Source: a virus
DNA length: 64,000 nucleotides
IMG/VR virus record: IMGVR_UViG_3300022903_000002
Coordinates: 32,001-96,000 of that record
Strand: one strand, 5' to 3'
Below the pieces are notes generated by a model. The model made no database searches and was not told where the DNA came from. It saw only the letters and a list, made by a program, of their open reading frames with translations. Positions 24,941 through 64,000 of the stretch are shown here, piece after piece; the stretch's first letter is position 1; each line of letters opens with the position of its first letter. Position numbers and translations under genes: made by a program.

Positions 24941-24941
24941 G

Positions 24942-34584: not shown

Positions 34585-34827
34585 TCACGATGCGCTGTCC
34601 TCGGTGATCCCGCACGCCCCGCATGTCCACCCCGAAAGGGCGCAGTCCGACCCGCAACCATTCCAGTTACGGCACGTCGAACACTCTCGCCCGTTATGAA
34701 GCGCCCTCGCGGGCTGGCCGCACGTAAGGCATACGGCGACCTGGCCAGAGCCTCCACCCATCGCGCGGGGAAGGACGTTGCCGCTGTGGTCGGTCTCGTG
34801 GACGTCGCGGACCTCGAAGTTGCTCAC
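34585..34827 (-). CDS. Cys-rich small protein
   Basis: Several CxxC motifs; coupled to the recombinase stop. Confidence 0.55.
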   Translation of the reverse strand: MSNFEVRDVHETDHSGNVLPRAMGGGSGQVAVCLTCGQPARALHNGRECSTCRNWNGCGSDCALSGWTCGACGITEDSAS

Positions 34828-35837: not shown

Positions 35838-36736
35838 CTCTTCCACAAGTGGACCTTCTCTCCGCCGAGCATCGGCGCTCCCTCGGGGCCTTTAACATGG
35901 GGGGCGATCCAAACCGGGCGATGAACCTCACGCTTTGGGTGCCATTGCTGTCGCCAGTGTCCCCTGACGATCCACTGGTGGTGGTATTCCCGTCCTGATG
36001 CTTCGGATTCGTCCGAGGATGTCTGGGAGCGTCGCAAGGTGATGATCCTCACGGGGGCCGCTTCAGGATCGATCCGAGCTATACGTTTGCGGTCAGCGCG
36101 AGAGTAGGTCGCGTCTTCAATGTTCAGGATCGACTGCTGCATCAGTGTCCAGAATGTCTTCGTGACCGCGCCGTGTTTCTGGGCGCTATCGACATCGGCT
36201 GGCTTCCCGGGTTCTTGTCCGAACGACCACCAGCCGGGGACATGTGTCTCGTGAACTAGCGGGAGCATCCGCCTTGTCGCTTCGACCAGTTTGGGATACG
36301 CGGAGATCTGGTCCGTGTAGTCCCGGCGCTCTGTCAGCCAGATCGTTTGAACACCCTGGCCTTCGAGTACAGCCCAAGCGAACCCGTGGACTCTCTCCGT
36401 AATGGGTTCGAACACGTTTGGAGCTACTTCGACTTCGTAGTCTCGATTCCAAAGAGGTTCGGGAGTGTAGAGCAGGCCGACCATCGAGGGAAGATCCTCT
36501 TGTTGCAGAGAGTAGTCAGGGATGGTTTTTGCAGCCTCGACCGCCAGTTGGGCCATCTGCGGAGCGACGTAGTAGAGGTCAACGCTCACGGAGGCGAGAA
36601 GATCAGCAAACTTGATCCGCATTGCTGTAGGCGTCTCAGATGGGTAGACGTTGTCGAAGAACGCCTCGGCGCGACCGTCTCGGTACCAGGCCAAGAGGTC
36701 ATGCTTGATCATCGGTAGATCGACTGCGCGGATCAT
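35834..36736 (-). CDS. conserved hypothetical protein
   Basis: HQWIVRGHWRQQW...WIAPHVKGP motif; more AT-rich codons. Confidence 0.7.
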   Translation of the reverse strand: MIRAVDLPMIKHDLLAWYRDGRAEAFFDNVYPSETPTAMRIKFADLLASVSVDLYYVAPQMAQLAVEAAKTIPDYSLQQEDLPSMVGLLYTPEPLWNRDYEVEVAPNVFEPITERVHGFAWAVLEGQGVQTIWLTERRDYTDQISAYPKLVEATRRMLPLVHETHVPGWWSFGQEPGKPADVDSAQKHGAVTKTFWTLMQQSILNIEDATYSRADRKRIARIDPEAAPVRIITLRRSQTSSDESEASGREYHHQWIVRGHWRQQWHPKREVHRPVWIAPHVKGPEGAPMLGGEKVHLWKR

Positions 36737-36763: not shown

Positions 36764-36791
36764 GATTCAGATAAATGGAATTATCCTTGCA
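36764..36791. promoter_or_regulatory. dif-like recombination site candidate
   Basis: 11-6-11 layout GATTCAGATAA-ATGGAA-TTATCCTTGCA. Confidence 0.45.
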
Positions 36792-37507
36792 CTGATTAGG
36801 GGCCCCGAACCCCTGTTGAGCCGGGTTTCTGTCTGGTCGAGCATGCGTAGAAGTAGGTCCGCCAGCAGGACCGCCTCACTGGCTATCACCGGATCGTCGT
36901 AGTCGACGGCCCGGTGAGACGTCGGGTTCTTGAACAGTCCGATCGCGCCGGCGAAGAGAAACATCGCCGCTTCCTGCTCGCCGCCGTCCGCTGCCGTGTC
37001 GACCAGCGGTCCCGGGCCCTGCCGAGAGAACGCCTGCTTCATCAGTGCTACGCCCAGTGTCGAGCCAGGCAGATTAGCGAGTTCGCGTACTCGGATTTCG
37101 ACTTCGCGCATAGCCGCGAAGACCGCCAACTCGTACTCACCAAGGAGGAACTGTTGCTCTACCTGCTGAGCAATCCGGGAATGAAGGGCCATCCCGAGCC
37201 GTTCGGCTGCCGCAAGCTTGGCTATTCCGTACTTCAGTGTCTCACGACCAAGCCTGCTTACGCGGTATGCGTCTGGGGACATCTGAGAGGGATCAGGTGT
37301 TACTAGTCCGTGTGTCATGAGCCACCCCCAACCCTCGCCGAGCGCGGCGCTGATCTCTGGGTCCTGTGCAGTGCCGTAATTCTCTGCCGCGCGCATCCAG
37401 TTCCGCCAGTTCGAACCTCTGCTAGAGGCATAGCTCTGGAGGATGAGGAGAGCCAGCGCATCGATTGGTAGGGCAAGTGTCTCTTGCTTCGAACGGTTCC
37501 AACTCAT
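36767..37507 (-). CDS. TIGR02391 (Ymh)-like protein
   Basis: AVFAAMREVEIRVR, GVALMKQAF, LFAGAIGLFKNPTSH. Confidence 0.82.
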   Translation of the reverse strand: MSWNRSKQETLALPIDALALLILQSYASSRGSNWRNWMRAAENYGTAQDPEISAALGEGWGWLMTHGLVTPDPSQMSPDAYRVSRLGRETLKYGIAKLAAAERLGMALHSRIAQQVEQQFLLGEYELAVFAAMREVEIRVRELANLPGSTLGVALMKQAFSRQGPGPLVDTAADGGEQEAAMFLFAGAIGLFKNPTSHRAVDYDDPVIASEAVLLADLLLRMLDQTETRLNRGSGPLISARIIPFI

Positions 37508-43823: not shown

Positions 43824-44129
43824 TCAGGCCGCCTTAAGGAACGCGTAGAAGACCTCCGCCTCGGCGATCAACAGCGCCGGGTCATCATCCGGATCGCGAT
43901 CGAAGTCGCGGTTGTTGGACGCCCTGAACAGAGACCGGTAGCGGGCGTCCTGCTCCGCTGCGTCTCCGGTCTCCACCCAGTCGATGAGGACCTTCGCGTT
44001 AGCTGCGACCGCGCCCGGGTTGCTTCGCTCGGTGGTCAGGTCGCCGGCGTAGCCGAGTACGTGATCGCGGCGGATCCGGACGGTACTCTCCCGAGGTTTT
44101 TCGGGGGCGTTGATCGAGTTGAGTTCCAT
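43824..44129 (-). CDS. hypothetical protein
   Basis: Operon context downstream of traB. Confidence 0.6.
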   Translation of the reverse strand: MELNSINAPEKPRESTVRIRRDHVLGYAGDLTTERSNPGAVAANAKVLIDWVETGDAAEQDARYRSLFRASNNRDFDRDPDDDPALLIAEAEVFYAFLKAA

Positions 44130-44132
44130 AGT

Positions 44133-44384
44133 TCAGGCCATCGCTTTCATGTTGGCGAGGTGGCGCTGGCCGACCTCGGTGATCGTGTACGACGTGTGCA
44201 CCGCACCGCGGACCGCGGACAGATAGCCGGAGTCGGCGAGCTGGTGCAGGGCCGCGCGGATGTAGGAGGCCGGCACGCCAGGCTGGACGCGCTGCAGATC
44301 CCCGATCGTGTGCGGCAGATCGTTGGTGAAGGCGGCCAGGACCGCGTTGTTCACGTCATTCCAGGCGGCGTCGGTAGAACCCAT
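44133..44384 (-). CDS. winged-HTH-like small protein
   Basis: YIRAALHQLADSGYL...YTITEVG. Confidence 0.6.
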   Translation of the reverse strand: MGSTDAAWNDVNNAVLAAFTNDLPHTIGDLQRVQPGVPASYIRAALHQLADSGYLSAVRGAVHTSYTITEVGQRHLANMKAMA

Positions 44385-44420
44385 GGCGGGTGTGTCCTTT
44401 CGGGAGTGGGGGGAGGAGGG

Positions 44421-46364
44421 TTAGGCGGCGACTGACGCCAGCCGCTGTTTGCCCCGTTCGGTGATGCGATACAGTCCGCGACCGGTCTTCTCGATCTCGC
44501 CCGAGGCGACCAGGTCGGTGAGAGCCTTGGTGATAGTGCGGAGCGCCGGCGGCGGGGACATGTGGGTCTGGATGAACCCGACCATCTCCCCTCGGTTCAC
44601 TTCCTGGCCGTCCCGCTCCGCCAGATAACTCAAGACGGCGTCTTCGCCGATGCGGGACTGGTCGGAGTCGTCCTGTGTGTCCGCCTTCGATGACTGGCTT
44701 TGTGGGGTGTGGGCGCTGGCTCCGTCGCCGCCGGCGACAGGACCGACGAACGGCTCGAGTTGCGCCGGCTCCCCGCTCGTTGCCCAACGTCGCGGCTTGA
44801 TGATCAGGAACGTTCGCATCGTCGCGGGACGGTCAGCGCCGGGCCCGAACACGTAACCGAGACCTGAAGTCGTGTCTCCGTTCGGCCATTCCTTGGGCAG
44901 CGTGCACGGGTCGACGGGCATCGACCCGTTGAACGCGACCTGGCCCGAGAGGCGGTTCGCGGTGCGGAACACGATGACGTTCCCGGCGGCGACTGCGTCA
45001 CGGATCGCCATGGAGTTGCCCAGGCTGTTCAACAGCGGCACTTGGGTGATTAGCCGGAATTTGATCCCGCACTTGCGGGACATCGCGATCATTTCCTCAA
45101 CGAGCGCACAGCAGACAGGGTCACCGAGGACGGTCTGCGCCTCGTCGACTGTGACGCTGATCATTGGCAGGCCGTGACGCGGGTCGCCGGGGGTGAACTC
45201 CTCGATGCCCTCGATCTCTTCGCCGTCCTCATCGACCCACCGGATCGTGGACATGAGTTCGTTGCGGGCGTACATACGGTCGCGGAGTTCACGGAGCCGG
45301 CCGCGGATCGCGTCGAGGCCACCAGCGAACTGAGCGACAGCGTTCTTCCACCCAGACTCGGAGTAGGACTGCCCGCGTTGCGGGTCCAGAAGGATCGAAG
45401 CGATCACACCAGAGTGGCGTTCCTCGGCGAGGAGGAGTTTGACGAGGACAGACTTCCCGGCGTCGGTGGATCCGGCGATGAGGTCGTGGACCGGCCCGGA
45501 CCGTGGCCGGTAGTGCCGGTACGAGACAGGATTCCCGTCGGTGTACACGCCGATACGGGAGACACCAGTGGCGGTTTTGAGAGTCGGCCCAGGCCAGTGG
45601 TGAACCTCCTGGAGCGGGTTCTCGGCCTGCACGAGCACCCGGAAGTGCCGAAGGGACCCGTCGGGGGCCGGTTCGATACTGATCGAGCCGGTCTTCAGGT
45701 GGAGTGCGCCACCGATGTCCTCGGTCGCCATAATCGCGCGCTTGTAGGTGCCTTTGGTGACTTCGCCCAGTCCGGCCCAGCCGCCGCGGATCTTCTCTAC
45801 TTCGAGGATCCGCGAGTGCTCGAGCGGGCCGCCTGAGCAGGAGACATGGAGGCGCCACGACTCGACCAGCTCCGGGTCCTCCGCGACGGGCGCGACCTCG
45901 GGCGCCTGGTGGTTGCGGATGCGGTAGCGCCACCACCACGGCAACGCGAACGCCCCACCGACGATCGCGAGCCACGCGGGCATCGGCTTGCCGACACCGT
46001 GCGCTGCGGCTTCCATGAGCCACAGCGTCGCCGCGATGATTGAGGTGACCGCGTGCAACTGCCGCCAGATATTCACGGCCTTGGCGTAGAGGGCCCACCA
46101 TGTGCCGCCGGCGGTTACCGCGCCGGTTGCGAGGACCGCCCACCACGGGGCACTGAACACCTCCAAGGCGAACCCAGTGACGTAGGCGCCGCCCATGACC
46201 TCGACGGGGATGAGTTGGCGGCGGAACCGTCTCCCGACCTTGAACGTCCCGGCGAGGGCCCGGTGCTCCTTCTTCGGAGCGGACGCCGCAGCGGCAACCG
46301 CTGGCTGGGACACGTCAACGCGAACCGTCTGCGGGTCCCGCTGCTCAACTGCTACGGCGTCCAT
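44421..46364 (-). CDS. traB: FtsK/SpoIIIE-family conjugative DNA translocase (TraB/TraSA-like)
   Basis: N-terminal TM segments, Walker A IAGSTDAGKS, Walker B VTVDEAQ, SRKCGI..LITQ, C-terminal wHTH (KALTDLVASGEIEKTGRGLY). Confidence 0.85.
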   Translation of the reverse strand: MDAVAVEQRDPQTVRVDVSQPAVAAAASAPKKEHRALAGTFKVGRRFRRQLIPVEVMGGAYVTGFALEVFSAPWWAVLATGAVTAGGTWWALYAKAVNIWRQLHAVTSIIAATLWLMEAAAHGVGKPMPAWLAIVGGAFALPWWWRYRIRNHQAPEVAPVAEDPELVESWRLHVSCSGGPLEHSRILEVEKIRGGWAGLGEVTKGTYKRAIMATEDIGGALHLKTGSISIEPAPDGSLRHFRVLVQAENPLQEVHHWPGPTLKTATGVSRIGVYTDGNPVSYRHYRPRSGPVHDLIAGSTDAGKSVLVKLLLAEERHSGVIASILLDPQRGQSYSESGWKNAVAQFAGGLDAIRGRLRELRDRMYARNELMSTIRWVDEDGEEIEGIEEFTPGDPRHGLPMISVTVDEAQTVLGDPVCCALVEEMIAMSRKCGIKFRLITQVPLLNSLGNSMAIRDAVAAGNVIVFRTANRLSGQVAFNGSMPVDPCTLPKEWPNGDTTSGLGYVFGPGADRPATMRTFLIIKPRRWATSGEPAQLEPFVGPVAGGDGASAHTPQSQSSKADTQDDSDQSRIGEDAVLSYLAERDGQEVNRGEMVGFIQTHMSPPPALRTITKALTDLVASGEIEKTGRGLYRITERGKQRLASVAA

Positions 46365-46436
46365 GGGTCTCCGTCCCTGGAAAATGTGAGATGTGGGGTG
46401 GGCCCGGGCGCGTCACCGCCCGGACCCGAATGCAGG

Positions 46437-47354
46437 TCAGCCGCTGTAGAAGCTCGTGTCGCCGACCTTCGCCGTGGCGCCCTGGACGGACTGCTCGACG
46501 TTCTCGTGGCCCTGCGTCCGCAGCTTTGTGCGCGCCGCCTCAGCGTTCGCGACGGTCTGCTCCGCGGCCTGCAGGCGCTGCGTCGCCGCGGTGCGCCGCT
46601 GCATCGCTGCATCCATCAGATCCGTCATCCCGCCGGCGGTCTCAGAACCCAGGCCCGCGTTCAGCAGGCTCGTGTTCGTGGACTCGTGCGCGGCGATCTC
46701 CTTGTCCGCTGCGGCGATCTCCGCTCGGGCTTCCTCGATCCGCCCTGCCGCTGCGCTGATCGTCGCGTCAAGGTGGGTGCGGTAGGTGCCGATGTTGGTG
46801 GTCTCACCGGTCATCGTGTCGGTCACTGTCGTTTCCTTTCCTGTTGGAGACTCACTGCCTGCCCCGGCCGGGACAGCCCGGAGAACGGCCGCGCCTCGAA
46901 CACGCGACGTCGGCTCCTCTGGTTTCGGGGTGGGTGTCGTCGGCTCCGGCTCGCTCGCCTCGGCCGCAGCGCCTCGCCGGAACTTCGCTTTGGCTCGTTC
47001 CCAGCCAGCGCGGATCGCGTTCCGCAGCGGCGGTACCGGCTCTCCGGTCGCGGCGCGGCGTTCCTGCCATTCCTGGTGCTGCTTCTTGGCAGCGACGAAT
47101 CCGTCCCGCATGTCGGCGACGGTCGGCGACCAGCCGTGCCGCAATTGGTATGCGAAATGACCGAGGGCGTTTCTTCGGGCACCCCACCACAGAGCGCGGG
47201 CGCGCCGGGATTTGTCCCAGCTCGGGTGTCGGCTTTTCAGTTCTTTGTTGAGTTGTTTCCGGTAGCGGTCTTGGGCGGTCCGGTATTCGGCGGCTTTGCC
47301 TTCGAATATGTGGCACAGCGCCCAGCCGATTGCGACGAGCAGTAGAAGTCCCAT
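46437..47354 (-). CDS. transfer-associated membrane/coiled-coil protein (internal start 46826)
   Basis: N-terminal TM; AGGAAAGGA before internal GTG; Ala-rich helical C-domain; directly upstream of traB. Confidence 0.65.
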   Translation of the reverse strand: MGLLLLVAIGWALCHIFEGKAAEYRTAQDRYRKQLNKELKSRHPSWDKSRRARALWWGARRNALGHFAYQLRHGWSPTVADMRDGFVAAKKQHQEWQERRAATGEPVPPLRNAIRAGWERAKAKFRRGAAAEASEPEPTTPTPKPEEPTSRVRGAAVLRAVPAGAGSESPTGKETTVTDTMTGETTNIGTYRTHLDATISAAAGRIEEARAEIAAADKEIAAHESTNTSLLNAGLGSETAGGMTDLMDAAMQRRTAATQRLQAAEQTVANAEAARTKLRTQGHENVEQSVQGATAKVGDTSFYSG

Positions 47355-47358
47355 TACG

Positions 47359-47826
47359 TCACACCCCGAACAATTTTCCGATGACGGCGGCACCAGTCAC
47401 CGCGACGGTTGACAGGAAAGTGGCGAGCCAGCTACCGATGGTCCCGCCGATCTGCGGCCCGAAAGCGGGAAGTAGAAGCGCGGAAATCTCGGTGGTCCGG
47501 TTCGACTGGTGTTTCGGCCACAAGTCGTAGATGACGATGTAGGCGAGGACGAACGCGATCACAACGGGGATGGCAGCACCGACGTAGGGGATGGTGACGG
47601 CCCACCGCATCACGGTGACGGCCCACGAGGCGAGGAACGCGGCGGCGAACCCCACCCCGGCGATCAGGTACAGCCACGGCTTCAGGAACTCGATCTTGCC
47701 GAGGGGCTTCCAGTTCAGCAGCAGCGCGAACGTGATGCAGATGCCAGCGGCGCCGAGCGAGATGGCGGTGAAGTGGTGCGGGACAGACGCCGATACGGCG
47801 GCCTGCCTCGCAGCTACGGATGTCAA
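47359..47826 (-). CDS. Spd-like multi-pass membrane protein
   Basis: AAGGAGAGG before TTG; about four TM helices. Confidence 0.6.
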   Translation of the reverse strand: MTSVAARQAAVSASVPHHFTAISLGAAGICITFALLLNWKPLGKIEFLKPWLYLIAGVGFAAAFLASWAVTVMRWAVTIPYVGAAIPVVIAFVLAYIVIYDLWPKHQSNRTTEISALLLPAFGPQIGGTIGSWLATFLSTVAVTGAAVIGKLFGV

Positions 47827-47852
47827 GGGACCTCTCCTTCTGTGAGCAGGGA

Positions 47853-48329
47853 TTAGTGGAGTCGCCACACGATGACGGCGAAGATCAGGAAGCAGATCGA
47901 GCGGGCGGGTCGCTGGATCAGCCATGCGGCTGCGTACAGCGCCCAGGACGCGGGGATCGCGATGAGGAAGCAGTGGATGCGTTGCGCCAGGCGGAGGAAC
48001 GGAACGCCGCCAGCCATGGGGGCGGCCTTCGCGTAGGCGAGGAGCTCGTAGGTCGACGCAGGGTGCTCGGCTTTGAAGCCGGAGTTGCGCCCGGGCCAGT
48101 TCCCGAGCTTCGCGAGGGTCTCTTTGGCTTGGGAGATCCACAGGTCGACGACCTCGTCTACGGCGCTGAAGTCCTCTTCCTCATCGGTGTCGGCGCCGCG
48201 TTCGCGGTCACCTTCGGTTACACTCTCCTCGCGCGCACCCGGGCGCGCCCGCGCGTCGCGCCCCTCCGTCGCGTAGGGGACCTCTTCTTCGAGCAACGGC
48301 CCGTTGCCCATTGCGCTTTGCCTCATCAC
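47853..48329 (-). CDS. Spd-like membrane protein
   Basis: C-terminal TMs, WLIQRPAR. Confidence 0.6.
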   Translation of the reverse strand: MMRQSAMGNGPLLEEEVPYATEGRDARARPGAREESVTEGDRERGADTDEEEDFSAVDEVVDLWISQAKETLAKLGNWPGRNSGFKAEHPASTYELLAYAKAAPMAGGVPFLRLAQRIHCFLIAIPASWALYAAAWLIQRPARSICFLIFAVIVWRLH

Positions 48330-48547
48330 TGCCCGTCACCTCCTTCCAGATACTGGATGCGCGTGTTGATGAGCCTGATCATCTGGTCGACCTCCGTTAC
48401 GGACAGGCCTGCTGGCAGGTCGGCGACGATCCGCCGCCAGCGGTCGAACTGGACCGCGACGCGCTCCTGCGGGGTCCGCACCCGGCGGGCCTTCCGGTCA
48501 AGGAGTGCCTGGCGTCGCTCGGCGCGTGCCTCGGATCGAGTGCTCAC
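48326..48547 (-). CDS. hypothetical protein
   Basis: Coupled ORF. Confidence 0.55.
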   Translation of the reverse strand: MSTRSEARAERRQALLDRKARRVRTPQERVAVQFDRWRRIVADLPAGLSVTEVDQMIRLINTRIQYLEGGDGQ

Positions 48548-48777
48548 GGGGTCGCCTCGACGTCTGACTGCTCGGCGTGAGCGCCCTGCGGCTTGATGTA
48601 GGTCCGGTACGCCCAGATGGCAGCGATGCCGAGTGTGATGATCACGATCAGCCCGACGAATCGCATGTACGTGTGGAGGTTGCGATCCATAGCGGTCGCG
48701 ACCACTCCGCCGGCGACCGCCCCGGAGATGGTTGCGGCAACAACGGTCGTGACCACTGGCCTGATGTTGGTGGTCAT
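48544..48777 (-). CDS. small two-TM membrane protein
   Basis: Two hydrophobic segments; coupled to neighbours. Confidence 0.6.
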   Translation of the reverse strand: MTTNIRPVVTTVVAATISGAVAGGVVATAMDRNLHTYMRFVGLIVIITLGIAAIWAYRTYIKPQGAHAEQSDVEATP

Positions 48778-50300
48778 CCGGTCTTCACCTCACTGGTCTG
48801 CTGGTGGTCTTTTGGGGTGGTCGCGTCCGCCTGGTCGTTGCCGCGGTGTCCGCCTCCGACCGGTCGCGGACCGGCCTCCTGGATCCGCTTGAGAGCCCAA
48901 CTCGGGGAGAACCCGAACCGCTTGGCGAGGGCACGCTTCGACAGCGGCGACCCTGCCTGGACACTGGCGAGGTACGCGTCCACTGCACGCTGGTTGTCCT
49001 CGGTGGATGGTTGCGGCTTGGTGGTCGCGTTCACATGGTCGCGTCCGGTCTTCCGGGTGGACTTCTTGGCCGGTCGCGTCCGGTTGGCCGGGTGGTCTTT
49101 TGGGGTGGTCGCGTCCGCCTGGTCACTGGACGCAGGAGGCTGGACGTTCGGGTAGTCGCGTCCACTGGTTTCGATGGCGGCGCGTCCGGTCGCGGTAGTG
49201 GTCGCGTCCACCGGTCGCGGGGTGGTCGCGTCCACCGGTCGCGGGGTGGTCGCGTCCACCGGTCGCGGGGTGGTCGCGTCCAGGTGGTCGCTCGGCCGCG
49301 TCCGGGTGGTCGCGGACAGGGTGGTCGCGGCGCCGTCCGTCCAGAACAGCCGGACGCGGGTCTTGGGTCCGGTGACCGGACGCGCGACGGTGGACGCGAC
49401 CACCAACCGGACGGAGGGCCGGCGGTCTTTCGCGAGCCGCTTCTGGTTCTTCGCGATCGCCCTCTTGCGGTCGATCCTGTCGATCTCCGTGACGGCCGCG
49501 GTCCACGCCTCGTCAACGGTTCTGATGCCGTAGCGGACCGCGAGGGACCATGCATGCCACGTGATGCGCGGGAACCGCAGCCACCGGAGGATCCCGAACC
49601 GCGGCCGGGCCTCAGCGACCTTCCCTTTCGCGCGCAGGTGCTTGCGGTGAATCAGCGAGGAGTACAGCTCCCACAGGGCGATGCCGACGAGGCTCATGGC
49701 ACCGTAGGAGACCGCTTTGGGGTTGGGGTCGAGGTTGATGTGCTGACGTATCGTCTGCGCGTTAAGGCGTTCGGTGACGACAGGGCAGGCGTGCCAGTAG
49801 TTCATCGCGCCGGCCGAGCAGGCGAACAGCCAAGTCGCGAACCGGAATAGTGCGCCCCGGTCACCATCTTTGCGCGCTTGGTGGTACATCCAGCCGGTGA
49901 AAGCGGTCGTCAGCTCCCATGCGGCGGCAAATATCAGGGCGCCGAGAAGGGGCCAGCCGAGTTTGTCGTGCGCGAATCCGATCTGCCCAATCCACGCGAC
50001 CGCCATAGGAGCGAGAATCGGCCCCGTGATCATGACTCGCCGACCGACCGTTGGCATTAGCGCCTGGATCTTCTTCGCAAGTTTCTGCCGGGCGTGCTGG
50101 CGTCGAATGCGGCGCTTCGCCTGTTCGTTGGCGCGGGTCTGCTTCTTCTCCTCGTCGAGGATCAGTTTCTGCCGCTCGCGCTGAAGGCGCAGCTGTTCCC
50201 GTTCGTGGCTGAGACGAACACGGGTCTCTTCGGTGATGCGTGCCTGCTCGGCGGAGACCTGGATACGGGTGGCTTTGCGGTCGGCGGGGATCTCGCTCAT
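48774..50300 (-). CDS. SpdB2/DUF2637-like spread protein
   Basis: N-terminal coiled coil, four TMs, RWLRFPRITW motif, repeat region, C-terminal HTH (LSKRALAKRFGFSPSWA). Confidence 0.72.
   Translation of the reverse strand: MSEIPADRKATRIQVSAEQARITEETRVRLSHEREQLRLQRERQKLILDEEKKQTRANEQAKRRIRRQHARQKLAKKIQALMPTVGRRVMITGPILAPMAVAWIGQIGFAHDKLGWPLLGALIFAAAWELTTAFTGWMYHQARKDGDRGALFRFATWLFACSAGAMNYWHACPVVTERLNAQTIRQHINLDPNPKAVSYGAMSLVGIALWELYSSLIHRKHLRAKGKVAEARPRFGILRWLRFPRITWHAWSLAVRYGIRTVDEAWTAAVTEIDRIDRKRAIAKNQKRLAKDRRPSVRLVVASTVARPVTGPKTRVRLFWTDGAATTLSATTRTRPSDHLDATTPRPVDATTPRPVDATTPRPVDATTTATGRAAIETSGRDYPNVQPPASSDQADATTPKDHPANRTRPAKKSTRKTGRDHVNATTKPQPSTEDNQRAVDAYLASVQAGSPLSKRALAKRFGFSPSWALKRIQEAGPRPVGGGHRGNDQADATTPKDHQQTSEVKTG
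48803..49330. repeat. GGTCGCG(TCC) direct-repeat array including a 24-bp tandem repeat
   Basis: GGTCGCGTCC at 48819, 49037, 49072, 49107, 49200, 49224, 49248, 49272 plus shorter GGTCGCG copies; about 34-bp duplication at 48803 and 49091. Confidence 0.9.
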
Positions 50301-50614
50301 GCCGCCACCTCGTCGCGTTGCTGCTGGATCTTCTGGCGTTCGTCGATGTTGTAACCGCCCCAGATGCCGTACTGGTCGTGACGGTCAAGCGCGTCTTCCA
50401 AGCAGTCGACACGGACCGGGCAGCCCTCGCAGATCGACCTAGCGAGCGGCGCACGCCGTCCCTTCGCCGGGTACCAGGCGTCCCCTCCGACGTCACGGCA
50501 CGCGGCGTCGTCCTGCCATTCGAGGCCCCGCATGTCCAAGGCGAGGGCATGGAGGAAGGAGGCGACACCACTGCCCCAGGGGGAGGATGCGTGGTGGCGT
50601 TGGCGGGCGGTCAT
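50297..50614 (-). CDS. whiB: WhiB-family Fe-S transcription factor
   Basis: WQDDAAC...ICEGCPVRVDC...GIWGG. Confidence 0.9.
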   Translation of the reverse strand: MTARQRHHASSPWGSGVASFLHALALDMRGLEWQDDAACRDVGGDAWYPAKGRRAPLARSICEGCPVRVDCLEDALDRHDQYGIWGGYNIDERQKIQQQRDEVAA

Positions 50615-50617
50615 GGC

Positions 50618-51061
50618 TCAGACCTCTTCGTTCGCGTTGTCGGGGAACAGCTCGGCGTCCAAGGCGGCGAGCCACTCTTCGTCCTTGCGGGACAGTTCGA
50701 CGGTCATGGACTCGGGATGGCCAGCCGGCGGGGCGTCGAAGGAGCGGACGACGCTGCAGCAGGAGCAGGTCTCCCCGTACTGGCGGAGCTCGCCATCGGT
50801 CACGTACTCCAGCGGCACCCAGCCGTGCCCGTCCCGGACGCAGTCCTCGATCTGCGTGCATGACGCGCACAGCATCTGCAGGGACCCGTCCGGCTGCTCG
50901 GTGATCGACCACATGAAGTCGACGGGCAGGAGGCGGAGGGCCGTACCGCGGGAAGTGAAGAGCGGCTGGACGTCCTCGTAGCCCTTCCACCAGTCCGGTC
51001 CACACATGTCGCAGGTTGCGGTGGTCGCACCATAGGTTTTGCCGAACGTCATCGGGTTCAC
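50618..51061 (-). CDS. Cys-rich hypothetical protein
   Basis: Multiple CxxC motifs. Confidence 0.6.
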   Translation of the reverse strand: MNPMTFGKTYGATTATCDMCGPDWWKGYEDVQPLFTSRGTALRLLPVDFMWSITEQPDGSLQMLCASCTQIEDCVRDGHGWVPLEYVTDGELRQYGETCSCCSVVRSFDAPPAGHPESMTVELSRKDEEWLAALDAELFPDNANEEV

Positions 51062-51173
51062 CTCCCGTTGGTGGTCGTGTCGGTGGTCTGGGTGTTGTCG
51101 GCGGCCTGCTGCTCGAGCTGGCGACGCAGGAACTGCTGATCGACTCCGTGGCCGACCGGGTCGGTGTAGGCGC

Positions 51174-51554
51174 TCATGACCGACCTCCTTCGGCGCGGGC
51201 GGGGTAGTGGTCGCCGAGGTGGTAGCGCTTGTACGTGCCCTCTGGCACGTTCAGGGAGTGCCGCTTGCCGTTCTTGCCGCGAACCACGAGGACCCACACA
51301 GACCGGCACTCCACCGGGAGGGGCATCTGCTTGCAGTACGGGGCGGGGCTCACCATGCGCAGGGAGCGTCGAGCGGTGACGACACCGGTGATGTTGGGCT
51401 TCGTCGTGGGCCTTGCGCTGGTGGGCCCTGGGTGGGTGGGTGCTGCGCTCGGAGGCTTTGTGGGCTCCGTGCGCGGCGCCGAGCCGGTGCTGGCGCATCC
51501 AGCCGTACCTACGAGCAAGCCAGCGGCAGCGACCACGCTGATGAGTTTCGTCAT
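51174..51554 (-). CDS. lipoprotein
   Basis: Signal peptide ending GTAGC. Confidence 0.65.
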   Translation of the reverse strand: MTKLISVVAAAGLLVGTAGCASTGSAPRTEPTKPPSAAPTHPGPTSARPTTKPNITGVVTARRSLRMVSPAPYCKQMPLPVECRSVWVLVVRGKNGKRHSLNVPEGTYKRYHLGDHYPARAEGGRS

Positions 51555-51691
51555 GCCGTCACCGCCCGGTCAGGGTGGAACTCGTGGTCGACGTCAGCGG
51601 CGCGGACGGTGTGTCCACCGTCGTCCCAGCAGTCGAACTGGATCGGGCCGCCGGTCAGGGACGTCTGGTGAATTGGGCAACGAGCGTTCAT
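51551..51691 (-). CDS. 46-aa small protein
   Basis: Hand-translated MNARCPIHQTSLTGGPIQFDC..., overlapping both neighbours. Confidence 0.55.
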   Translation of the reverse strand: MNARCPIHQTSLTGGPIQFDCWDDGGHTVRAADVDHEFHPDRAVTA

Positions 51692-52311
51692 CGGACGTCA
51701 CCGCCCGCGCTGTAGAGCGAAGCGATGACCTCATCGAGGTCGACGCCATCGTCCGCACTCAGATCCGAGAACGCCGGATCGGTGCTGTAGCCGTGGCGTC
51801 CCAGCACCTCACTGATCTCAGCGAGTGCCTCGGTGGCGTTCGCCGGGACCGGCCCGCCGCTCCCGCTGAGGCCCTCCACGATCCGGCTGACCGAGCCGGC
51901 GAGCACCGCCAGATCCATGTCGGCGCGCACCGCGGCGGGAATCCGCAGGTTCGGGTGAGGGGCGTGACCCTCGTGCTCGTGGCACTCGACCGTGGTGACG
52001 ACGAGGGAGTGAGTGGTTCCGCGGGTCTCGACGCGGCCCGTGGCGGTGACAGTTGGCGGTTGCAGGATCCTGCCCGGTCCGCGGACCGGACCGATCAGAT
52101 CACGGAACTCCTGGTAGTAGAGCGGGAAGACGATGATGCCGATGGATACGTGTTCGCCGCTCAGGCGGAACTCTGCCCAGTCGTTGCCTTGCCTGGTGCG
52201 GTGGGGGCTGTGGCCGTTGAGGATGCCGGTGACAGTGACGATCTCGCCGTCCTCGTGGAGACCGGCAGCGATCGAGGTGATCGACGGTCCCTGGATGGTG
52301 TAGGTCTTCAT
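51688..52311 (-). CDS. OB-fold nucleic-acid-binding protein
   Basis: VTVTGIL...TRQGNDWA...IIVFPLYY, similar to the DnaE C-terminal OB fold. Confidence 0.6.
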   Translation of the reverse strand: MKTYTIQGPSITSIAAGLHEDGEIVTVTGILNGHSPHRTRQGNDWAEFRLSGEHVSIGIIVFPLYYQEFRDLIGPVRGPGRILQPPTVTATGRVETRGTTHSLVVTTVECHEHEGHAPHPNLRIPAAVRADMDLAVLAGSVSRIVEGLSGSGGPVPANATEALAEISEVLGRHGYSTDPAFSDLSADDGVDLDEVIASLYSAGGDVR

Positions 52312-52577
52312 CGGTTCGCACCGCCGTCCTCGTCACCGAGGAACGTGCCGAGCACCTGGATGCCGTTCGAGATCGGAACCTCACGGACCGCAGGCTTGGA
52401 GATGCGGTCGCGGATCACGGAGACGAAGATCGCCAGGACGATGGCACCGAACGGGACGATCAGAATCGACGCTTCCGTGTAACGGATCCATGCGGGTGCG
52501 CTCATCGGGGTGAGGAGTGTGAGACCGAGGACCGCGTAGTAGGCGCCGACCGCAACGGTGGGCTTGTAGAGGGTCAT
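52308..52577 (-). CDS. two-TM membrane protein
   Basis: GGGAGG RBS; hydrophobic segments. Confidence 0.6.
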   Translation of the reverse strand: MTLYKPTVAVGAYYAVLGLTLLTPMSAPAWIRYTEASILIVPFGAIVLAIFVSVIRDRISKPAVREVPISNGIQVLGTFLGDEDGGANR

Positions 52578-52688
52578 GTCGTCACCTCCCGTTCTGGTGT
52601 TGGGTCTTGTCGTACTGGTCGCGGAGGAAGTCGCTCTCGCTGCTGTCGAAGTCGTCGCCGTAGTGCATGACGATGGGGAGGGCACGCA

Positions 52689-52916
52689 TCAGGACACCCC
52701 CGGCAGGTTGCGCTGGTGCTCCATGCCCATCGCGAACGCACCAGCGACGGCAGCGAGGAAGCCATCGACCTCGTCGGTGACGTCCGCGCCGTTCAGCTGA
52801 GCGTCCAGCGCGGCAGCGAGAGCGGTCACGTTGATGGAGGCGGGTACCCGGAACTGCGGGATGCTGTCGTCGTCCGCGATGGGGCGAGGAACGCCATGCT
52901 CTAGAGTGAGTGCCAC
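52689..52916 (-). CDS. hypothetical protein
   Basis: GAGAGG RBS before GTG. Confidence 0.5.
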   Translation of the reverse strand: MALTLEHGVPRPIADDDSIPQFRVPASINVTALAAALDAQLNGADVTDEVDGFLAAVAGAFAMGMEHQRNLPGVS

Positions 52917-53160
52917 AGGATCGGTTCCTCTCGTGATGGGGCGGTGACAGGTCCTGCTCGCCCCGTTCCGGTGTTCGCGCACCGGGCGGGGCTTCTTGCT
53001 GTTCGCGAGGGCGGTCACCATTCGGCTCGCCCCACATCGGTGATCTCTTGTTGACACCGGCAGGTCTGGCAGAAGGCGGTCTCGCCGATCGTCCACATCG
53101 ATGCACTACCGGTCGGCCACAGGTAGTGGGCGCAGACGAGCACGACTCGTAAGGCAGCCA

Positions 53161-53379
53161 TCAGGCGACCGCCTCAGGTAGTGGGGGGCTGATCCGACGC
53201 CGCTCCAAATATTCGGCGACCGACTGCTTGTAGATCTTGATGGGGGCGTTACGGGCAGGCCCCTTGACGGCCTGAAGCTCCCCGTTCCTGACGAGCCGCC
53301 TCACGGTCCACCGTGAGAGATGAAGCTCTTTGCAGGTCTCCGCTGTCGAAAGGAACACGTTGCTACCCTCGCTCTCCAT
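53161..53379 (-). CDS. xis: excisionase/Cro-like HTH protein
   Basis: LSTAETCKELHLSRWTVRRLVRNGEL; divergent from the repressor. Confidence 0.75.
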   Translation of the reverse strand: MESEGSNVFLSTAETCKELHLSRWTVRRLVRNGELQAVKGPARNAPIKIYKQSVAEYLERRRISPPLPEAVA

Positions 53380-53470
53380 GTAGCAGTACGCTACAAGATG
53401 CACCAAGATGCTGCAAGGGGGTCTGGCCAAGAGGTTGTTCCAACTTGTTGCAAGGCGCTACAACAGACCT
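53379..53470. promoter_or_regulatory. divergent promoter/operator region (genetic switch)
   Basis: TGTAGC..GCTACA inverted repeat; CAAGATGC and GCTACAA each occur twice. Confidence 0.5.
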
Positions 53471-53824
53471 ATGAGCGCAGATGAACCGGGCGCCCGTTTC
53501 GCAGCCGAGGTCGACGCCAGACGGAAAGCGATGGGTCGCGCGGTCGGGTGGCTGGAGGATCGATCGGGTATCGCTCGCAGCACGGTTGGCCGCTGGCGAA
53601 GAGGCCTTGCTGCGCCAACACCAGAGCCGGTGATCGCGATTGCCGATGCCCTCGGCATGGACCGGACGACAGCGCTGCAACTCGCTGGGCTCTCTCCGGC
53701 GATCGCGGTGGGTGAGGCGGGCGAGCCGATGGCGTTGACCAGGATTCACATTGATGTCCTGCTGGCCGAAATACGTAGGCGAATCCCCAATGCTGACGAC
53801 ACTGCGTCTGAAGGCTCGGACTAG
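53471..53824 (+). CDS. XRE-family HTH repressor
   Basis: LEDRSGIARSTVGRWRRG..P..VIAIADALG. Confidence 0.8.
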   Translation: MSADEPGARFAAEVDARRKAMGRAVGWLEDRSGIARSTVGRWRRGLAAPTPEPVIAIADALGMDRTTALQLAGLSPAIAVGEAGEPMALTRIHIDVLLAEIRRRIPNADDTASEGSD

Positions 53825-54002
53825 TAAGTGGTGGCAGGTTGTGGTTTCTTGGCGCACGACACCACCGTCCGCCTTGCGGGCGAACCACTGCCATGTAGCA
53901 AGGCTGCAACTCGCTGCAGTAACCATGGAGGGATACTGCAGTTCTGTGCACCATCCGCAGTTACCCTGCAATTACACGTTGAGAAGCCTCTAGGGAGGCG
54001 GG

Positions 54003-54665
54003 ATGGACCCGGCTCAGGAGTGGACGGGGCGCACAGCCACCGCGCTCCGCAAAGCCCTACGATTGACCGTCGACCGGTTCGCCAGCCGACTCGGAGTAGC
54101 ACCGCGGACTGTCGCGAATTGGTCAGCGCAGCCCGATATGGTCCCGCGCGTAAGCGTGCAGGACGCACTCGACGACCTGCTCGGCCAGGCGACTCCCGCC
54201 GTCCGAGAGCGCTTCACGGAACTTGCTGATGGCAATGAGGGTGCGTCGGTAGGCCATGCTCAATCGCTCCGTGTCGCGATCTCGGTGGTAACCCGGAATC
54301 GAGACGTGCTGCTCGTGAAGCGCCGTGATGACGGGGCAGGGATCTCTTGGCAGTTCCCGGCCGGCGTCATCAAACCGGGCGAACGCGGCGAAGACGTAGC
54401 CGTGCGGGAGACCCTTGGGGAGACCGGCGTTCACTGCATCGTGCAACAGCCGATCGGCTCCCGGCTCCACCCCGTGACGGGTGTGTACTGCGACTACTAC
54501 GCCTGCGACTTCCTCACGGGAGAAGCAGTGAACCGGGATACCGTGGAAAATGCCGGTGTCGCATGGGTGTCGCGCCAGGATCTGACCCGGTTCGTCGCCC
54601 GTGACAAGGTGTACCCGCCGATCTTGCGCTTCCTGGAGGAACAGCGTGACGCAGCCCACCGATAG
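54003..54665 (+). CDS. HTH-Nudix fusion protein
   Basis: N-terminal XRE-like HTH; degenerate Nudix box GVIKPGE...VRETLGETG. Confidence 0.82.
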   Translation: MDPAQEWTGRTATALRKALRLTVDRFASRLGVAPRTVANWSAQPDMVPRVSVQDALDDLLGQATPAVRERFTELADGNEGASVGHAQSLRVAISVVTRNRDVLLVKRRDDGAGISWQFPAGVIKPGERGEDVAVRETLGETGVHCIVQQPIGSRLHPVTGVYCDYYACDFLTGEAVNRDTVENAGVAWVSRQDLTRFVARDKVYPPILRFLEEQRDAAHR

Positions 54666-55083
54666 CCGCCCCGTCATCGCAGCGGCCGTGATCGTCAAAG
54701 ACGGTCGCTTCCTGCTCGTGCAGCGGGCCGTCTCGGAGGGCAGCCTGTCGTGGCAGTTCCCGGCCGGCGAAGTCGAGCAGGGCGAATTGGTAGAGGACGC
54801 GGCTGTTCGGGAGACCGCCGAGGAGGCCGGGCTCGTCGTTGTCGCTAAGAGCAGGCTGGGGGAACGGATCCATCCCGCCACGGGCCGCGAGATGGTCTAC
54901 GTCGAGTGCGAAGTCATCGACGGAGAAGCGCACGCCGCGGACGATGAGGAGATCGCTGCAGTCTCCTGGATCCGTCTCGACGAGATCCCCGAGTACGTCC
55001 CCTACGGCTTCTACAGGCCGGTGCACGAACACCTTGCCGAGAGGCTGGGAGGCGGACCGCGCGAGCGCACCACCGGCGAGTGA
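54646..55083 (+). CDS. Nudix hydrolase
   Basis: Complete Nudix box GEVEQGE...AAVRETAEEAG. Confidence 0.88.
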   Translation: MTQPTDSRPVIAAAVIVKDGRFLLVQRAVSEGSLSWQFPAGEVEQGELVEDAAVRETAEEAGLVVVAKSRLGERIHPATGREMVYVECEVIDGEAHAADDEEIAAVSWIRLDEIPEYVPYGFYRPVHEHLAERLGGGPRERTTGE

Positions 55084-55442: not shown

Positions 55443-55758
55443 AGGGTTCCCGGAAGGGTTCGCTAAGGGTTCTTGGAACCCTTAGCGAAGGGTTGTGACC
55501 TGCAAGGACGCTGGTTCACGGGCTTGCGGCGAACCATGACCTCCCGCCCTCGAAACGGTTGGCCGAAATAGGGGTAGGAAAGCTGCAAAAACAGGGCCGG
55601 TGGCCGCAGTCAGCACGTCCGGTTGTGAGCCTCGTGAACTGCGAGCAGGAAAAATGCGGCAGGGCTTATGTTTCCCCAGGTAGAAACCCCCGGCGAAGGG
55701 TTCCCGTAACCCTTTATAGAACCCTTGGGGGAACCCTTAGAGAAGGGTTGTGACCTGC
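55443..55758. repeat. AAGGGTT/AACCCTT iteron-like clusters (candidate origin)
   Basis: About 10 copies in two clusters; palindrome TTCGCTAAGGGTTC-TTG-GAACCCTTAGCGAA; 29-bp near-perfect direct repeat at 55475 and 55730. Confidence 0.75.
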
Positions 55759-63908: not shown

Positions 63909-64000
63909 TCATGCGGTCCCACCATCCGTGTCGCTGAGCAGCTTGTGTAGCAACGGTACGGGCGATGTCGGACAGATCTCCCGACGTGCAGCGAGTGTTC
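63909..64000 (-). CDS. int: 3' end of probable tyrosine integrase (partial)
   Basis: Reads ...TLAARREICPTSPVPLLHKLLSDTDGGTA*, similar to C-termini of actinomycete tRNA-targeting integrases; points toward the att core. Confidence 0.55.
   Translation of the reverse strand, partial: TLAARREICPTSPVPLLHKLLSDTDGGTA

Follow-up and report, generated by a model that had tools for sequence, protein, structure and literature searches.

The window, a 64,000-nucleotide stretch of a 105-kb IMG/VR contig, carries a gene cassette centred on an FtsK-family DNA pump together with the virion genes of a phage. The features of the window are as follows (coordinates, strand, description and basis).

5884–32656, + strand: virion and lysis module on the same contig as the pump (Pfam/PHROG-type matches)
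34824–35846, − strand: tyrosine integrase that closes the leftward gene run of the pump (Pfam Phage_integrase, 3e-29, and SAM-like domain)
44133–44384, − strand: winged-helix-like protein of 83 aa directly downstream of the pump (weak phrog_2440 and Rrf2 matches only)
44421–46364, − strand: TraB-like FtsK-family dsDNA translocase (the pump) of 647 aa (profiles, motifs and predicted fold)
46437–47354, − strand: membrane-anchored coiled-coil partner of 305 aa (one N-terminal TM helix and a C-terminal coiled-coil-like region)
47359–47826, − strand: polytopic small membrane protein of 155 aa, Spd-like (at least four hydrophobic segments)
47853–48311, − strand: small protein of 152 aa with a C-terminal TM segment, Spd-like (TM prediction)
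48326–48547, − strand: small basic protein of 73 aa, translationally coupled (4-nt overlap with the upstream gene)
48544–48777, − strand: 2-TM small membrane protein of 77 aa (4-nt overlap at each side)
48774–50300, − strand: SpdB2-like/DUF2637-like membrane protein of 508 aa (Pfam, PHROG, phage homologue and gene position)
48816–49408, no strand: candidate clt-like array of nine direct copies and one inverted copy of GGACGCGAC(CAC) (repeat search)
50297–50614, − strand: WhiB-family regulator coupled to the SpdB2-like gene (Pfam Whib, 5.7e-20)
50618–51052, − strand: Cys-rich protein of 144 aa that travels with the cassette (43% identity, same position in viral contig G001 and in L073)
51688–52311, − strand: protein of 207 aa with a weak OB-fold-like match (similarity to a protein of Kitasatospora plasmid L005)
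53161–53379, − strand: HTH_17 (excisionase/MerR-type) gene at the head of the leftward run (Pfam HTH_17, 1.5e-10)
54003–54665 and 54646–55083, + strand: divergent XRE-NUDIX fusion and NUDIX genes (Pfam NUDIX, 3.8e-15 and 4.9e-21; HTH_31 weak)
63909 to beyond the window end, strand not given: second, weak tyrosine-recombinase-like gene (catalytic domain 22.8 bits, under GA)

The genome is that of a temperate siphovirus of a mycelial/filamentous actinomycete, 105 kb in length and near-closed. Both contig ends are located inside one AAA_24 gene, and the GC level is even over the pump region. The IMG/VR record is classed as linear and uncultured, with a CheckV completeness of 92%. The virion module encodes TerL (phrog_9, 9e-68), an SPP1 portal (3e-40), an HK97 capsid (5e-27), a protease, a major tail protein, a 1580-aa tape measure and Sipho_Gp37, and the lysis genes encode a PG_binding lysin and a holin. 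The transfer module, on the phage's own backbone, appears to have the lysis genes on one side and the early/immunity region on the other. The initial annotation had described, in addition to this complete head, tail and lysis module, an intact FtsK-family translocase preceded by a coiled-coil partner, several coupled membrane proteins, a SpdB2/DUF2637-like gene and an excisionase-type gene divergent from an XRE repressor and two Nudix genes. Each of these was located, with a reservation for DUF2637 that is given below.

The pump begins with four moderately hydrophobic helices (residues 51–141; helices 32–146 in the AF2 model), continues with the Walker A (GSTDAGKS, residues 298–305) and Walker B (..TVDEAQ, residues 404–409) motifs and ends in a winged helix (residues 567–646). 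The AF2 model has a pLDDT of 80, and its best Foldseek matches are the conjugation coupling protein TcpA (4.5e-14) and the FtsK motor (1e-13), with a probability of 1.0. The NCBIfam profile NF041214 (plasmid_TraB) matches residues 73–557 with an E value of 2.7e-16, but the score of 59 bits is far under the equivalog cut-off of 800 bits, and the pump is thus a distant TraB relative. The Pfam FtsK_SpoIIIE match (0.0026) is under GA. The Walker residues are invariant among 97 pump homologues, and some members of the family match PF09397 (FtsK gamma domain). The closest homologue (79% identity) is found in a Streptosporangiaceae MAG, and 127 actinomycete plasmids contain homologues of 33–37% identity; no cultured-phage homologue was found at E 1e-5 in a search of 50,697 phage records. 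In bacterial genomes, the plasmid_TraB profile covers positions 7–394 of pump homologues but only 250–421 of chromosomal FtsK. In the tree, chromosomal FtsK splits from the pump family with a support of 97, and pumps borne by phages and by chromosomes interleave. The phylogeny that the initial annotation had proposed places the pump apart from chromosomal FtsK. By gene content, the assignment of the pump and its neighbours to a TraB/Spd-type dsDNA-transfer gene set, rather than to chromosomal FtsK, is supported.

The ORFs of the transfer block are all intact and tightly coupled. The junctions between the genes from 46437 to 50614 range from −4 to +26 nt, and similarly close junctions have been reported for spd operons (PMC4447253). 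The coiled-coil partner, which has no match in Pfam, PHROG or NCBIfam searches, adjoins the ATPase upstream in L015 (68% identity), L016, L007, G001 and L073, and L015 and L016 also retain the 83-aa winged-helix-like gene (45–55%) downstream of the ATPase. The small membrane proteins belong to no named family. The 155-aa protein is 55–77% identical in L007, G001 and L015 and more weakly similar in L021, L030 and L075; the 152-aa protein is kept in L015 (74%), L007, G001, L030 and L075, and the 73-aa basic protein in L015, L007 and G001. The SpdB2-like protein consists of an N-terminal coiled-coil-like region, a hydrophobic core, a long repeat-bearing C-terminal part and an HTH-like end. This layout fits the reported SpdB2 architecture, in which an N-terminal coiled coil is followed by a TM core and a C-terminal domain (PMC4447253), and therefore counts for a Spd-type unit. 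The protein also matches phrog_10376 (6e-12). Its membership in DUF2637 is putative, as the Pfam match (E 0.0019, 18.6 bits) is under the gathering score of 22.8 bits; its positional counterparts in G003, G004 and L019 exceed this score.

The repeat array (∼10 copies) occupies the 3′ half of the SpdB2-like gene, and its copies are found in codon phases 0, 1 and 2 (read as DAT, GRD and RTR). Ten of the 24 genome copies of the 8-mer lie within 0.6 kb, compared with 0.08 expected, and the array is the sole 8-mer cluster with at least six copies per 600 bp in the whole 105-kb genome. The out-of-frame copies alone give a Poisson P of ∼1.6e-6. G001, G003, G004, L017 and L019 have analogous arrays at the same place, each specific to its element and spread over two or three codon phases. 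The comparable arrays of plasmids L005 and L006 are single-phase coiled-coil codon repeats, and arrays of this kind are thus not always DNA signals. The protein segment in whose coding sequence the array lies is of low complexity and rich in repeats, which counts against a clt reading. By analogy to clt loci, whose direct 8–9-bp repeats are recognised by the cognate TraB (PMC4447253, PMC3583192), the array would be a clt-like candidate site.

Several neighbouring genes recur with the cassette. A WhiB gene is also observed upstream of it in plasmids L005 and L006 and at many chromosomal loci, and the HTH_17 gene has a 51% identical counterpart in G001. The 207-aa protein shares 30% identity across 104 aa with the L005 protein annotated as OB-fold nucleic-acid-binding. 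In metagenome contig L080, a pump homologue has both Nudix genes (52–57% identical), in divergent orientation, 5.5 kb upstream, and NUDIX genes lie 2–4 kb downstream of the pump in L005 and L006.

The cassette is present in small integrase-linked chromosomal elements of Actinomadura and Spirillospora. The nearest chromosomal relatives span ∼7.5 kb and contain DUF2637, small genes, the pump and a 103-aa gene, followed by a tyrosine integrase. No fewer than three other viral contigs (G001, G003 and G004) carry the cassette together with TerL, portal or tape measure, and their head genes are of different families. The cassette is also present in an isolate prophage of Micromonospora maritima JCM 17013, in which the integrase end (489 kb), TerL (527 kb) and pump (566 kb) lie on one contig.

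[quoted passage not shown] On these summaries, pZL12 and the window phage each combine virion genes and conjugal-transfer-type genes on a single DNA molecule. Unlike the window phage with its module-linked tyrosine integrase, pZL12 is described as a plasmid kept by ParAB (PMC4487206); no ParB gene was found in the phage. A pZL12-like 92-kb Streptomyces plasmid encodes a terminase, a portal and a TraB/FtsK-like ORF, but its pump is only a distant relative of the window pump, on a long branch in the tree. SpdB2 homologues on actinophages phiC31 and VWB were earlier proposed to help phage DNA spread (PMC4447253). Given both precedents, the novelty initially claimed for a virion–conjugation hybrid was overstated. 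In Streptomyces phage Hiyaa, the SpdB2-like protein has a counterpart of 38% identity, gp98, which lies 2 kb from gp102, a 698-aa FtsK-like protein with a similar wHTH end. Hiyaa gp102 has no detectable similarity to the window pump and misses the TraB profile, and an 8-mer search of the Hiyaa locus revealed no array.

The module shares with the Streptomyces TraB-clt-Spd systems (pSVH1, pIJ101 and pJV1; PMC4447253, PMC3583192) an FtsK-like pump that ends in a wHTH, direct 8–9-bp repeats (a cis site in the plasmids, a candidate in the phage) and a coupled small-membrane-protein operon with an SpdB2-type protein that has an N-terminal coiled coil and TM core. The pump resembles pIJ101 Tra (648 aa) in size and domain order (FtsK_SpoIIIE, then a MarR-type wHTH), but the two share very little sequence (25% identity over 173 aa), and no similarity was detected between the SpdB2-like protein and pIJ101 SpdB. 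Unlike these plasmids, the phage has WhiB, HTH_17 and XRE-Nudix as putative regulators rather than GntR TraR/KorA, its array lies within the SpdB2-like ORF in three frames, and the carrier is a 105-kb phage. As in AICEs such as pSAM2 (PMC2440964, PMC3218068), a single block brings together a tyrosine integrase, an HTH of the excisionase type, an FtsK-like Tra and Spd-like genes, and it also resembles pSAM2 at the family level in its Nudix genes, as Pif belongs to the Nudix family. In contrast to AICEs, phage genes surround the block, and RepSA, RepAM, Prim-Pol and an own att pair were not found in it.

The tyrosine integrase gene and the weak tyrosine-recombinase-like gene, which add to the initial annotation, bear on whether the module belongs to the phage. 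The integrase follows the pump at a distance of 8.6 kb, and integrases of 25–38% identity lie 0.4–3.4 kb past the pump in Actinomadura, Spirillospora, G001 and L034; the second gene adjoins XRE/HTH_3 regulators. A small Actinomadura-type integrase-linked element could have been inserted or recombined into the phage as an independent or decaying AICE that does not serve it. Such a captured passenger would account for the compact integrase-ended relatives and the interleaved tree, and the second recombinase-like gene could then be the phage's own integrase, but the catalytic-domain match of that gene is weak. The passenger reading is also opposed by the intact, tightly coupled ORFs and by a linkage kept across four phage lineages, and it is quite unlikely. 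The block is not flanked by any att-like direct repeat of more than 15 bp (exact matches reach at most 14–15 bp, which is chance level), Pfam, PHROG and NCBIfam profile searches found no Rep-family gene, and phage-family genes (phrog_15934, 1e-40; phrog_26381, 2e-31) separate the pump from the integrase. The module is therefore read as part of the phage rather than a nested AICE, as first proposed, and its recurrence in other viral contigs agrees with this reading.

A phage-integral module might also serve another use: manipulation of host septation or sporulation by FtsK and WhiB mimicry, exclusion of plasmids or phages, or mobilisation of host or satellite DNA. Streptomyces phages commonly carry FtsK-like, WhiB-like and ParB-like genes, which are usually interpreted as tools that modify host development (PMC13587820, PMC10117723); a WhiB gene is coupled to the cassette, and lytic BE-cluster phages have DUF2637 genes without a pump nearby. 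However, a private array on the element's own DNA, with different words in relatives, points to self-recognition, the pump architecture is nearer to plasmid Tra proteins than to FtsK, and small integrative elements, for which transfer is a plausible purpose, have the same cassette as their core. Another use is thus unlikely. A chimeric assembly that fused a phage and a conjugative element, conceivable for an uncultured, linear and 92% complete record, is highly improbable given the single gene that spans both contig ends, the even composition and the same combination in three other viral contigs and one isolate-genome contig.

The reading that we prefer, a phage-integral AICE/plasmid-type dsDNA-transfer module that spreads phage DNA, is given a rough overall probability of 0.6. 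Its parts differ in strength: a TraB/Spd/clt-type unit integral to the phage is very probable, and actual movement of the phage genome by the module is a tentative proposal at slightly less than even odds. The observations are the identities and architecture of the genes, the repeat array and the patterns of conservation and linkage; binding, complex formation and any transfer are inferred. By analogy, the pump would be a hexameric, membrane-anchored, FtsK-type motor whose C-terminal winged helix would read a short DNA word, the GGACGCGACCAC repeats of the clt-like array. The small membrane proteins and the SpdB2-like protein would form a Spd-type channel complex. The WhiB and HTH_17 proteins and the XRE-Nudix/Nudix pair would regulate the module, and the Nudix pair could have an immunity function resembling that of Pif. 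After prophage excision, or during circular genome replication, the pump would load on the array and then translocate unprocessed double-stranded phage DNA through hyphal contacts or septal cross-walls. The size of the phage counts against this mechanism, as elements known to move by TraB-type transfer are 9–24 kb and the 105-kb phage is far bigger. Because the phage carries a plasmid-type pump, membrane partners and putative docking repeats, it may spread without virus particles. If so, lysogeny or infection would spread without virions, and the virion genes would serve long-range spread.

The predicted transfer block forms a minus-strand gene run that descends from 53379 to 43824, with two Nudix genes diverging from it.

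53379 downwards, minus strand: HTH_17 gene, then small genes
next in the run: 207-aa protein with a weak OB-fold match; Cys-rich 144-aa protein; WhiB
50300 to 48774, minus strand: 508-aa DUF2637/SpdB2-like protein, followed by a 77-aa protein with two TM segments and a 73-aa protein
next in the run: 152-aa protein with a C-terminal TM segment; 155-aa polytopic protein; 305-aa protein with TM and coiled-coil segments
46364 to 44421, minus strand: 647-aa ATPase, followed by an 83-aa winged-helix-like protein and a 101-aa protein, down to 43824
divergent from the run: XRE-NUDIX fusion gene and NUDIX gene

Re-annotation finds the description of this block and of the divergent XRE and Nudix genes in the initial annotation to be accurate. 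The genes from WhiB to the 305-aa gene are closely coupled, with junctions of −4 to +26 nt. Past the Nudix genes, a 666-bp gap contains two copies of GGAACCCTTAG(C/A)GAAGGGTTGTGACCTGC (55475–55503 and 55730–55758; 28 of 29 nt identical) at a spacing of 255 bp. Each copy carries a short hairpin (AACCCTT..AAGGGTT), and the copies may be terminators or operator-like sites.

The 647-aa ATPase is a plasmid-type pump, not an FtsK. The NCBIfam profile NF041214 (plasmid_TraB) aligns with residues 73–557 of the pump over profile positions 34–501 of 639 (59.2 bits, E 2.7e-16). This score lies far below the curated equivalog cut-off of 800 bits, and the pump is a distant TraB relative, not an equivalog. 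The Pfam FtsK_SpoIIIE match is sub-threshold. In three bacterial genomes, the plasmid_TraB profile covers positions 7–394 in the pump homologues versus only 250–421 in chromosomal FtsK. The Walker A (GSTDAGKS) and Walker B (TVDEAQ) motifs are intact, and G298, G303, K304, T405 and E408 are invariant among 26 sequences. An AF2 model of the pump (26 homologues, pLDDT 80) consists of N-terminal helices, an α/β domain, a RecA-like motor and a C-terminal winged helix. The possibly membrane-associated N-terminal region (residues 51–141) contains four helices with Kyte-Doolittle means of 1.07–1.34, modeled at a pLDDT of only 57–73. The C-terminal region (residues 567–646) adopts a helix-helix-helix-strand-strand fold at a pLDDT of about 90; its Pfam wHTH matches are weak, and homologues match the FtsK_gamma, MarR_2 and IclR HTH families. 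In Foldseek, the pump is closest to FtsK motors and to TcpA, the conjugation coupling protein of pCW3 (1e-13 to 4.5e-14). pIJ101 Tra is equally long and has its domains in the same order; the two proteins share 25% identity over the Walker region, and pIJ101 Tra has a MarR_2 domain at the place of the C-terminal winged helix.

Matches to the pump at 33–37% identity over about 400 aa were obtained by tblastn in 127 actinomycete plasmids, 113 of them from Streptomyces. Among cultured phages, tblastn gave no match to the pump at 1e-5 and megablast none to the block. A motor-domain tree of 31 rows splits off three chromosomal FtsK proteins with a support of 97 and places the pump family, on several long branches, with plasmid pumps, a pZL12-like plasmid ORF and pIJ101 Tra. 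The TraB-type assignment made in the initial annotation therefore holds against chromosomal FtsK. The tree contains few bona fide Tra references because a tblastn search with pIJ101 Tra returned only close kin and FtsK. FtsK/SpoIIIE-like genes of Streptomyces phages are documented and are usually read as modifiers of development (PMC13587820, PMC10117723); the FtsK-like Hiyaa gp102 has no similarity to the pump.

The source record is a single sequence of 105,082 bp, of which the window represents bases 32001–96000, and 179 genes were called in it with a codon-bias model. Its virion genes are arranged on the plus strand.

5.9–32.7 kb region, plus strand: TerL (phrog_9, 9e-68)
5.9–32.7 kb region, plus strand: portal, SPP1 type (3e-40)
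5.9–32.7 kb region, plus strand: head protease
5.9–32.7 kb region, plus strand: capsid, HK97 type (5e-27)
5.9–32.7 kb region, plus strand: major tail protein
5.9–32.7 kb region, plus strand: tape measure of 1580 aa with an intein
5.9–32.7 kb region, plus strand: Sipho_Gp37
5.9–32.7 kb region, plus strand: lysin with a PG_binding domain
5.9–32.7 kb region, plus strand: holin

The plasmid_TraB match and the head, tail and lysis genes are located in the same contig, as the initial annotation had described. The portal is 43–46% identical to those of cultured Arthrobacter and Curtobacterium siphoviruses. The replication genes (DnaB-like helicase, AAA_24 and HNH) all lie outside the window. The last 120 nt of the record code for residues 1–40 of an AAA_24 ATPase, GPSGCGKT among them, and the first gene of the record, whose frame is open upstream, continues AAA_24 from profile position 59. 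The record ends are thus two halves of one gene, which indicates a circular or circularly permuted molecule; the halves are out of frame on direct joining, so a few bases are missing. The GC content of the window is even at 0.63–0.68, except for a 0.59 island at 36–38 kb. No tRNA gene was detected there. One of the early genes outside the window, at 19608–20408 of the record, has a Thg1-like tRNA-His guanylyltransferase domain in its first 131 residues (Pfam 4.8e-26).

The SpdB2-like gene (48774–50300) was compared with the DUF2637 family, which we take to cover SpdB2. The Pfam match is 18.6 bits, under the gathering score of 22.8, so the DUF2637 assignment proposed for this gene falls short for the gene itself and stands for its positional counterparts, which score 26.9 bits in the Actinomadura/Spirillospora chromosomal locus L019 and 27.3 and 30.2 bits in the viral contigs G004 and G003. 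SpdB2 has an N-terminal coiled coil, about four TM helices and a C-terminal domain (PMC4447253). In the 508-aa protein, residues 20–80 are charged and heptad-like on sequence inspection, three hydrophobic segments are detected at a threshold of 1.0, and a fourth (150–172) was judged by eye. In the cultured phage Hiyaa, an SpdB2-like protein with 38% identity is encoded at a distance of 2 kb from an FtsK-like gene. pIJ101 SpdB shows no similarity to the SpdB2-like gene and no DUF2637 match.

The 3′ half of the SpdB2-like gene contains a repeat array, in which a repeat finder flagged GGTGGTCGCGTCC-type repeats. The coding strand has GGACGCGAC nine times in direct orientation at 48827–49280, with CAC after most copies, and once inverted at 49400. 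The copies occur in codon phases 0, 1 and 2 and are translated as DAT, GRD and RTR; the conserved unit is therefore the DNA and not a peptide. Ten of the 24 copies of the 8-mer in the genome (both strands) fall within 0.6 kb, where 0.08 are expected; for the four copies that are out of frame or inverted, taken by themselves, P is about 1.6e-6. Across the entire genome, this array is the sole 8-mer cluster with at least six copies per 600 bp. The clt loci of Streptomyces plasmids are direct 8–9-bp repeats that are read by the cognate TraB (PMC4447253, PMC3583192), and by analogy the array is a candidate clt, a private DNA address to which the predicted pump may bind. In each related element, the highest- or nearly highest-ranking 8-mer cluster occupies the same place with another word; in five of them its copies fall in two or three codon phases.

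Repeat words at the position of the array in related elements
G001, viral contig: CCGGACCG, 7 direct copies
G003, viral contig: CCGGCCTC, 12 direct copies
G004, viral contig: CCCTCCGG, 7 direct copies
L019, Actinomadura/Spirillospora chromosome: CCGACCCG, 12 direct copies
L017, Actinomadura/Spirillospora chromosome: GCCCCGAC, 6 direct copies

The arrays of two Kitasatospora/Streptomyces plasmids (L005 and L006) are single-phase coiled-coil codon repeats and were dropped as clt evidence. Three of the seven direct copies in G001 (24467–25044; L037:4467–5044) contain GACCCGGA, presumably the recognition word of pSVH1 TraB.

The cassette recurs in other genomes. Among 97 pump homologues, the best, from a Streptosporangiaceae MAG, is 79% identical, and in short MAG contigs (L015 and L016) the order of the 73-, 152-, 155- and 305-aa proteins, the pump and the small wHTH protein is kept at 45–79% identity. 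In another metagenome contig, a pump homologue has both Nudix genes 5.5 kb upstream, divergent and 52–57% identical. Streptomyces/Kitasatospora linear plasmids exhibit the same order with WhiB upstream and NUDIX downstream; BLAST similarity is limited to the pump. In Actinomadura/Spirillospora, a unit of about 7.5 kb begins with a DUF2637 protein of 397–430 aa above the Pfam threshold, continues with proteins of 76, 74, 200, 155 and 320 aa, and ends with a 662-aa pump, a 103-aa protein and a tyrosine integrase within about 0.4–1.5 kb. Such compact units of ~7.5 kb are observed at L019:5852–13692, where a Resolvase_N gene is next, and in L017, L018 and L020. No Rep gene was recognised in these four units, which may be minimal integrative transfer elements or remnants.

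A pump homologue is present in eight IMG/VR contigs, four of which (G001–G004) were examined in full. G003 is a 95-kb provirus whose left end carries an integrase; its genes at 15–38 kb include homologues of the TerL, portal and seven tail-region genes of this phage, and the DUF2637 gene and pump are located at 77–84 kb inside a long same-strand run of small genes. In the 75-kb G004, the cassette lies 5 kb from the lysin and tail genes in convergent orientation, and the portal (phrog_10963, 8e-119) and TerL (phrog_38, 2e-105) belong to families that differ from those of this phage. The 86-kb G001 contains the complete cassette, followed at 3 kb by an integrase, and has a tape measure and a TerL that is different again. 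G002 resembles an AICE-type end of a provirus call. In G004, the TerL gene has a same-strand neighbour at about 0.4 kb (L050:17893–19329, minus strand), whose 478-aa product carries a ParB-like nuclease domain at its N terminus (phrog_5475, 1.5e-69; ParB-like families around 1e-17).

The combination of virion and transfer genes could be an artefact of a chimeric contig, a possibility raised in the initial annotation. It recurs in the viral contigs and in the isolate Micromonospora maritima JCM 17013, where a 70% identical copy of the G003 integrase end lies at 489 kb of a single contig, ahead of a TerL homologue at 527 kb and the pump at 566 kb; chimeric assembly is therefore untenable. As for the co-occurrence of terL, capsid and traB, TerL and the pump are found together in G001, G003, G004 and M. 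maritima, and the Pfam capsid family PF05065 has no match in five viral records. This null result is uninformative because those phages use other head families.

The block could also be a nested element with its own ends. It resembles an AICE in combining an integrase, an FtsK-like Tra and Spd-like genes, and the only strong integrase (34824–35846) ends the same leftward run as the pump. It differs from an AICE in having neither its own att pair nor, among the larger ORFs, a replication gene. As the initial annotation had noted, no att pair or RepSA bounds the module: exact direct repeats shared by the integrase flank with any of the candidate right ends reach at most 12–15 bp, and no RepSA, RepAM or Prim-Pol was detected among the larger ORFs at 33.8–53.4 kb in Pfam, PHROG and NCBIfam scans. 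The 486 bp beside the integrase gave only short, noise-level attB matches in 301 Streptosporangiales-order genomes, and no att repeats were found inside G001, G002 or G003. The pump-to-integrase interval contains two PHROG families of phage proteins. In the motor-domain tree, phage-borne and chromosome-borne pumps interleave, and past capture of the transfer block by the phage is plausible. Also compatible with a nested element is a second, weak tyrosine-recombinase-like gene of 493 aa (Phage_int_SAM_3, 7e-6; catalytic domain only 22.8 bits), which begins at window position 63909, continues past the window end to 97390 of the genome and adjoins XRE-DUF5753 and HTH_3 regulators near the early genes. 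In our reading, the unit for transfer and integration now belongs to the phage backbone. A Hypoth_Ymh (TIGR02391-type) gene (36767–37192, minus strand; Pfam 9e-26) occupies the sole 0.59-GC stretch, between the integrase and the transfer module, and resembles an acquired accessory or defence-type gene.

A plasmid prophage is the remaining comparison. pZL12 is a Streptomyces plasmid-phage whose conjugal transfer is described as requiring a tra gene and two neighbours (Zhong 2010, as cited in PMC3583192), and pSLE1 is its relative (PMC4487206). Like pZL12, the phage combines a tra gene with virion genes in a single molecule, but it has an integrase. The pZL12 type is maintained as a plasmid by ParAB and a plasmid replicon; ParB_N was not found in the whole record, which argues against a pZL12-like plasmid prophage. 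Relative to pZL12, the lifestyle is integrative instead of plasmid, the pump clade is very divergent, and the seven-gene cassette is fixed and common to phages and minimal integrative elements. Also new are the recurrence of the cassette in phage lineages whose head genes are unrelated and the candidate repeat address, which is written into the SpdB2-like gene in three frames.

There is good support for what the module is and for its integration in a phage that forms virions, and by analogy with plasmid pumps the module could reasonably be expected to move the phage genome independently of virions. More tentatively, with a probability of about 0.35, these elements may represent a hitherto unrecognised class of large temperate actinophages with two transmission routes: virions and TraB-driven pumping of the unprocessed dsDNA genome via hyphal contacts or cross-walls. 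The class would comprise at least four lineages with unrelated head genes and the M. maritima JCM 17013 prophage, and the address for pumping would be a private repeat word that the SpdB2-like gene carries in all three frames. The Actinomadura pump-integrase units would be the same machine without a capsid, and phages and AICEs would form one evolutionary continuum.

The three-frame array provides a clean, testable prediction of a protein–DNA address, and a cultured strain with a related prophage places the question within experimental reach. Should the module work otherwise, it would still be a well-documented case of module exchange among AICEs, linear plasmids and phages. If it works as proposed, a temperate phage of a filamentous host could spread lysogeny or a running infection through the mycelium without lysis and without receptors, and the recurring FtsK-like and SpdB2-like genes of actinophages would be explained. 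The boundary between virus and conjugative element would then be blurred, and host range and phage resistance in antibiotic-producing actinomycetes would have to be read differently.
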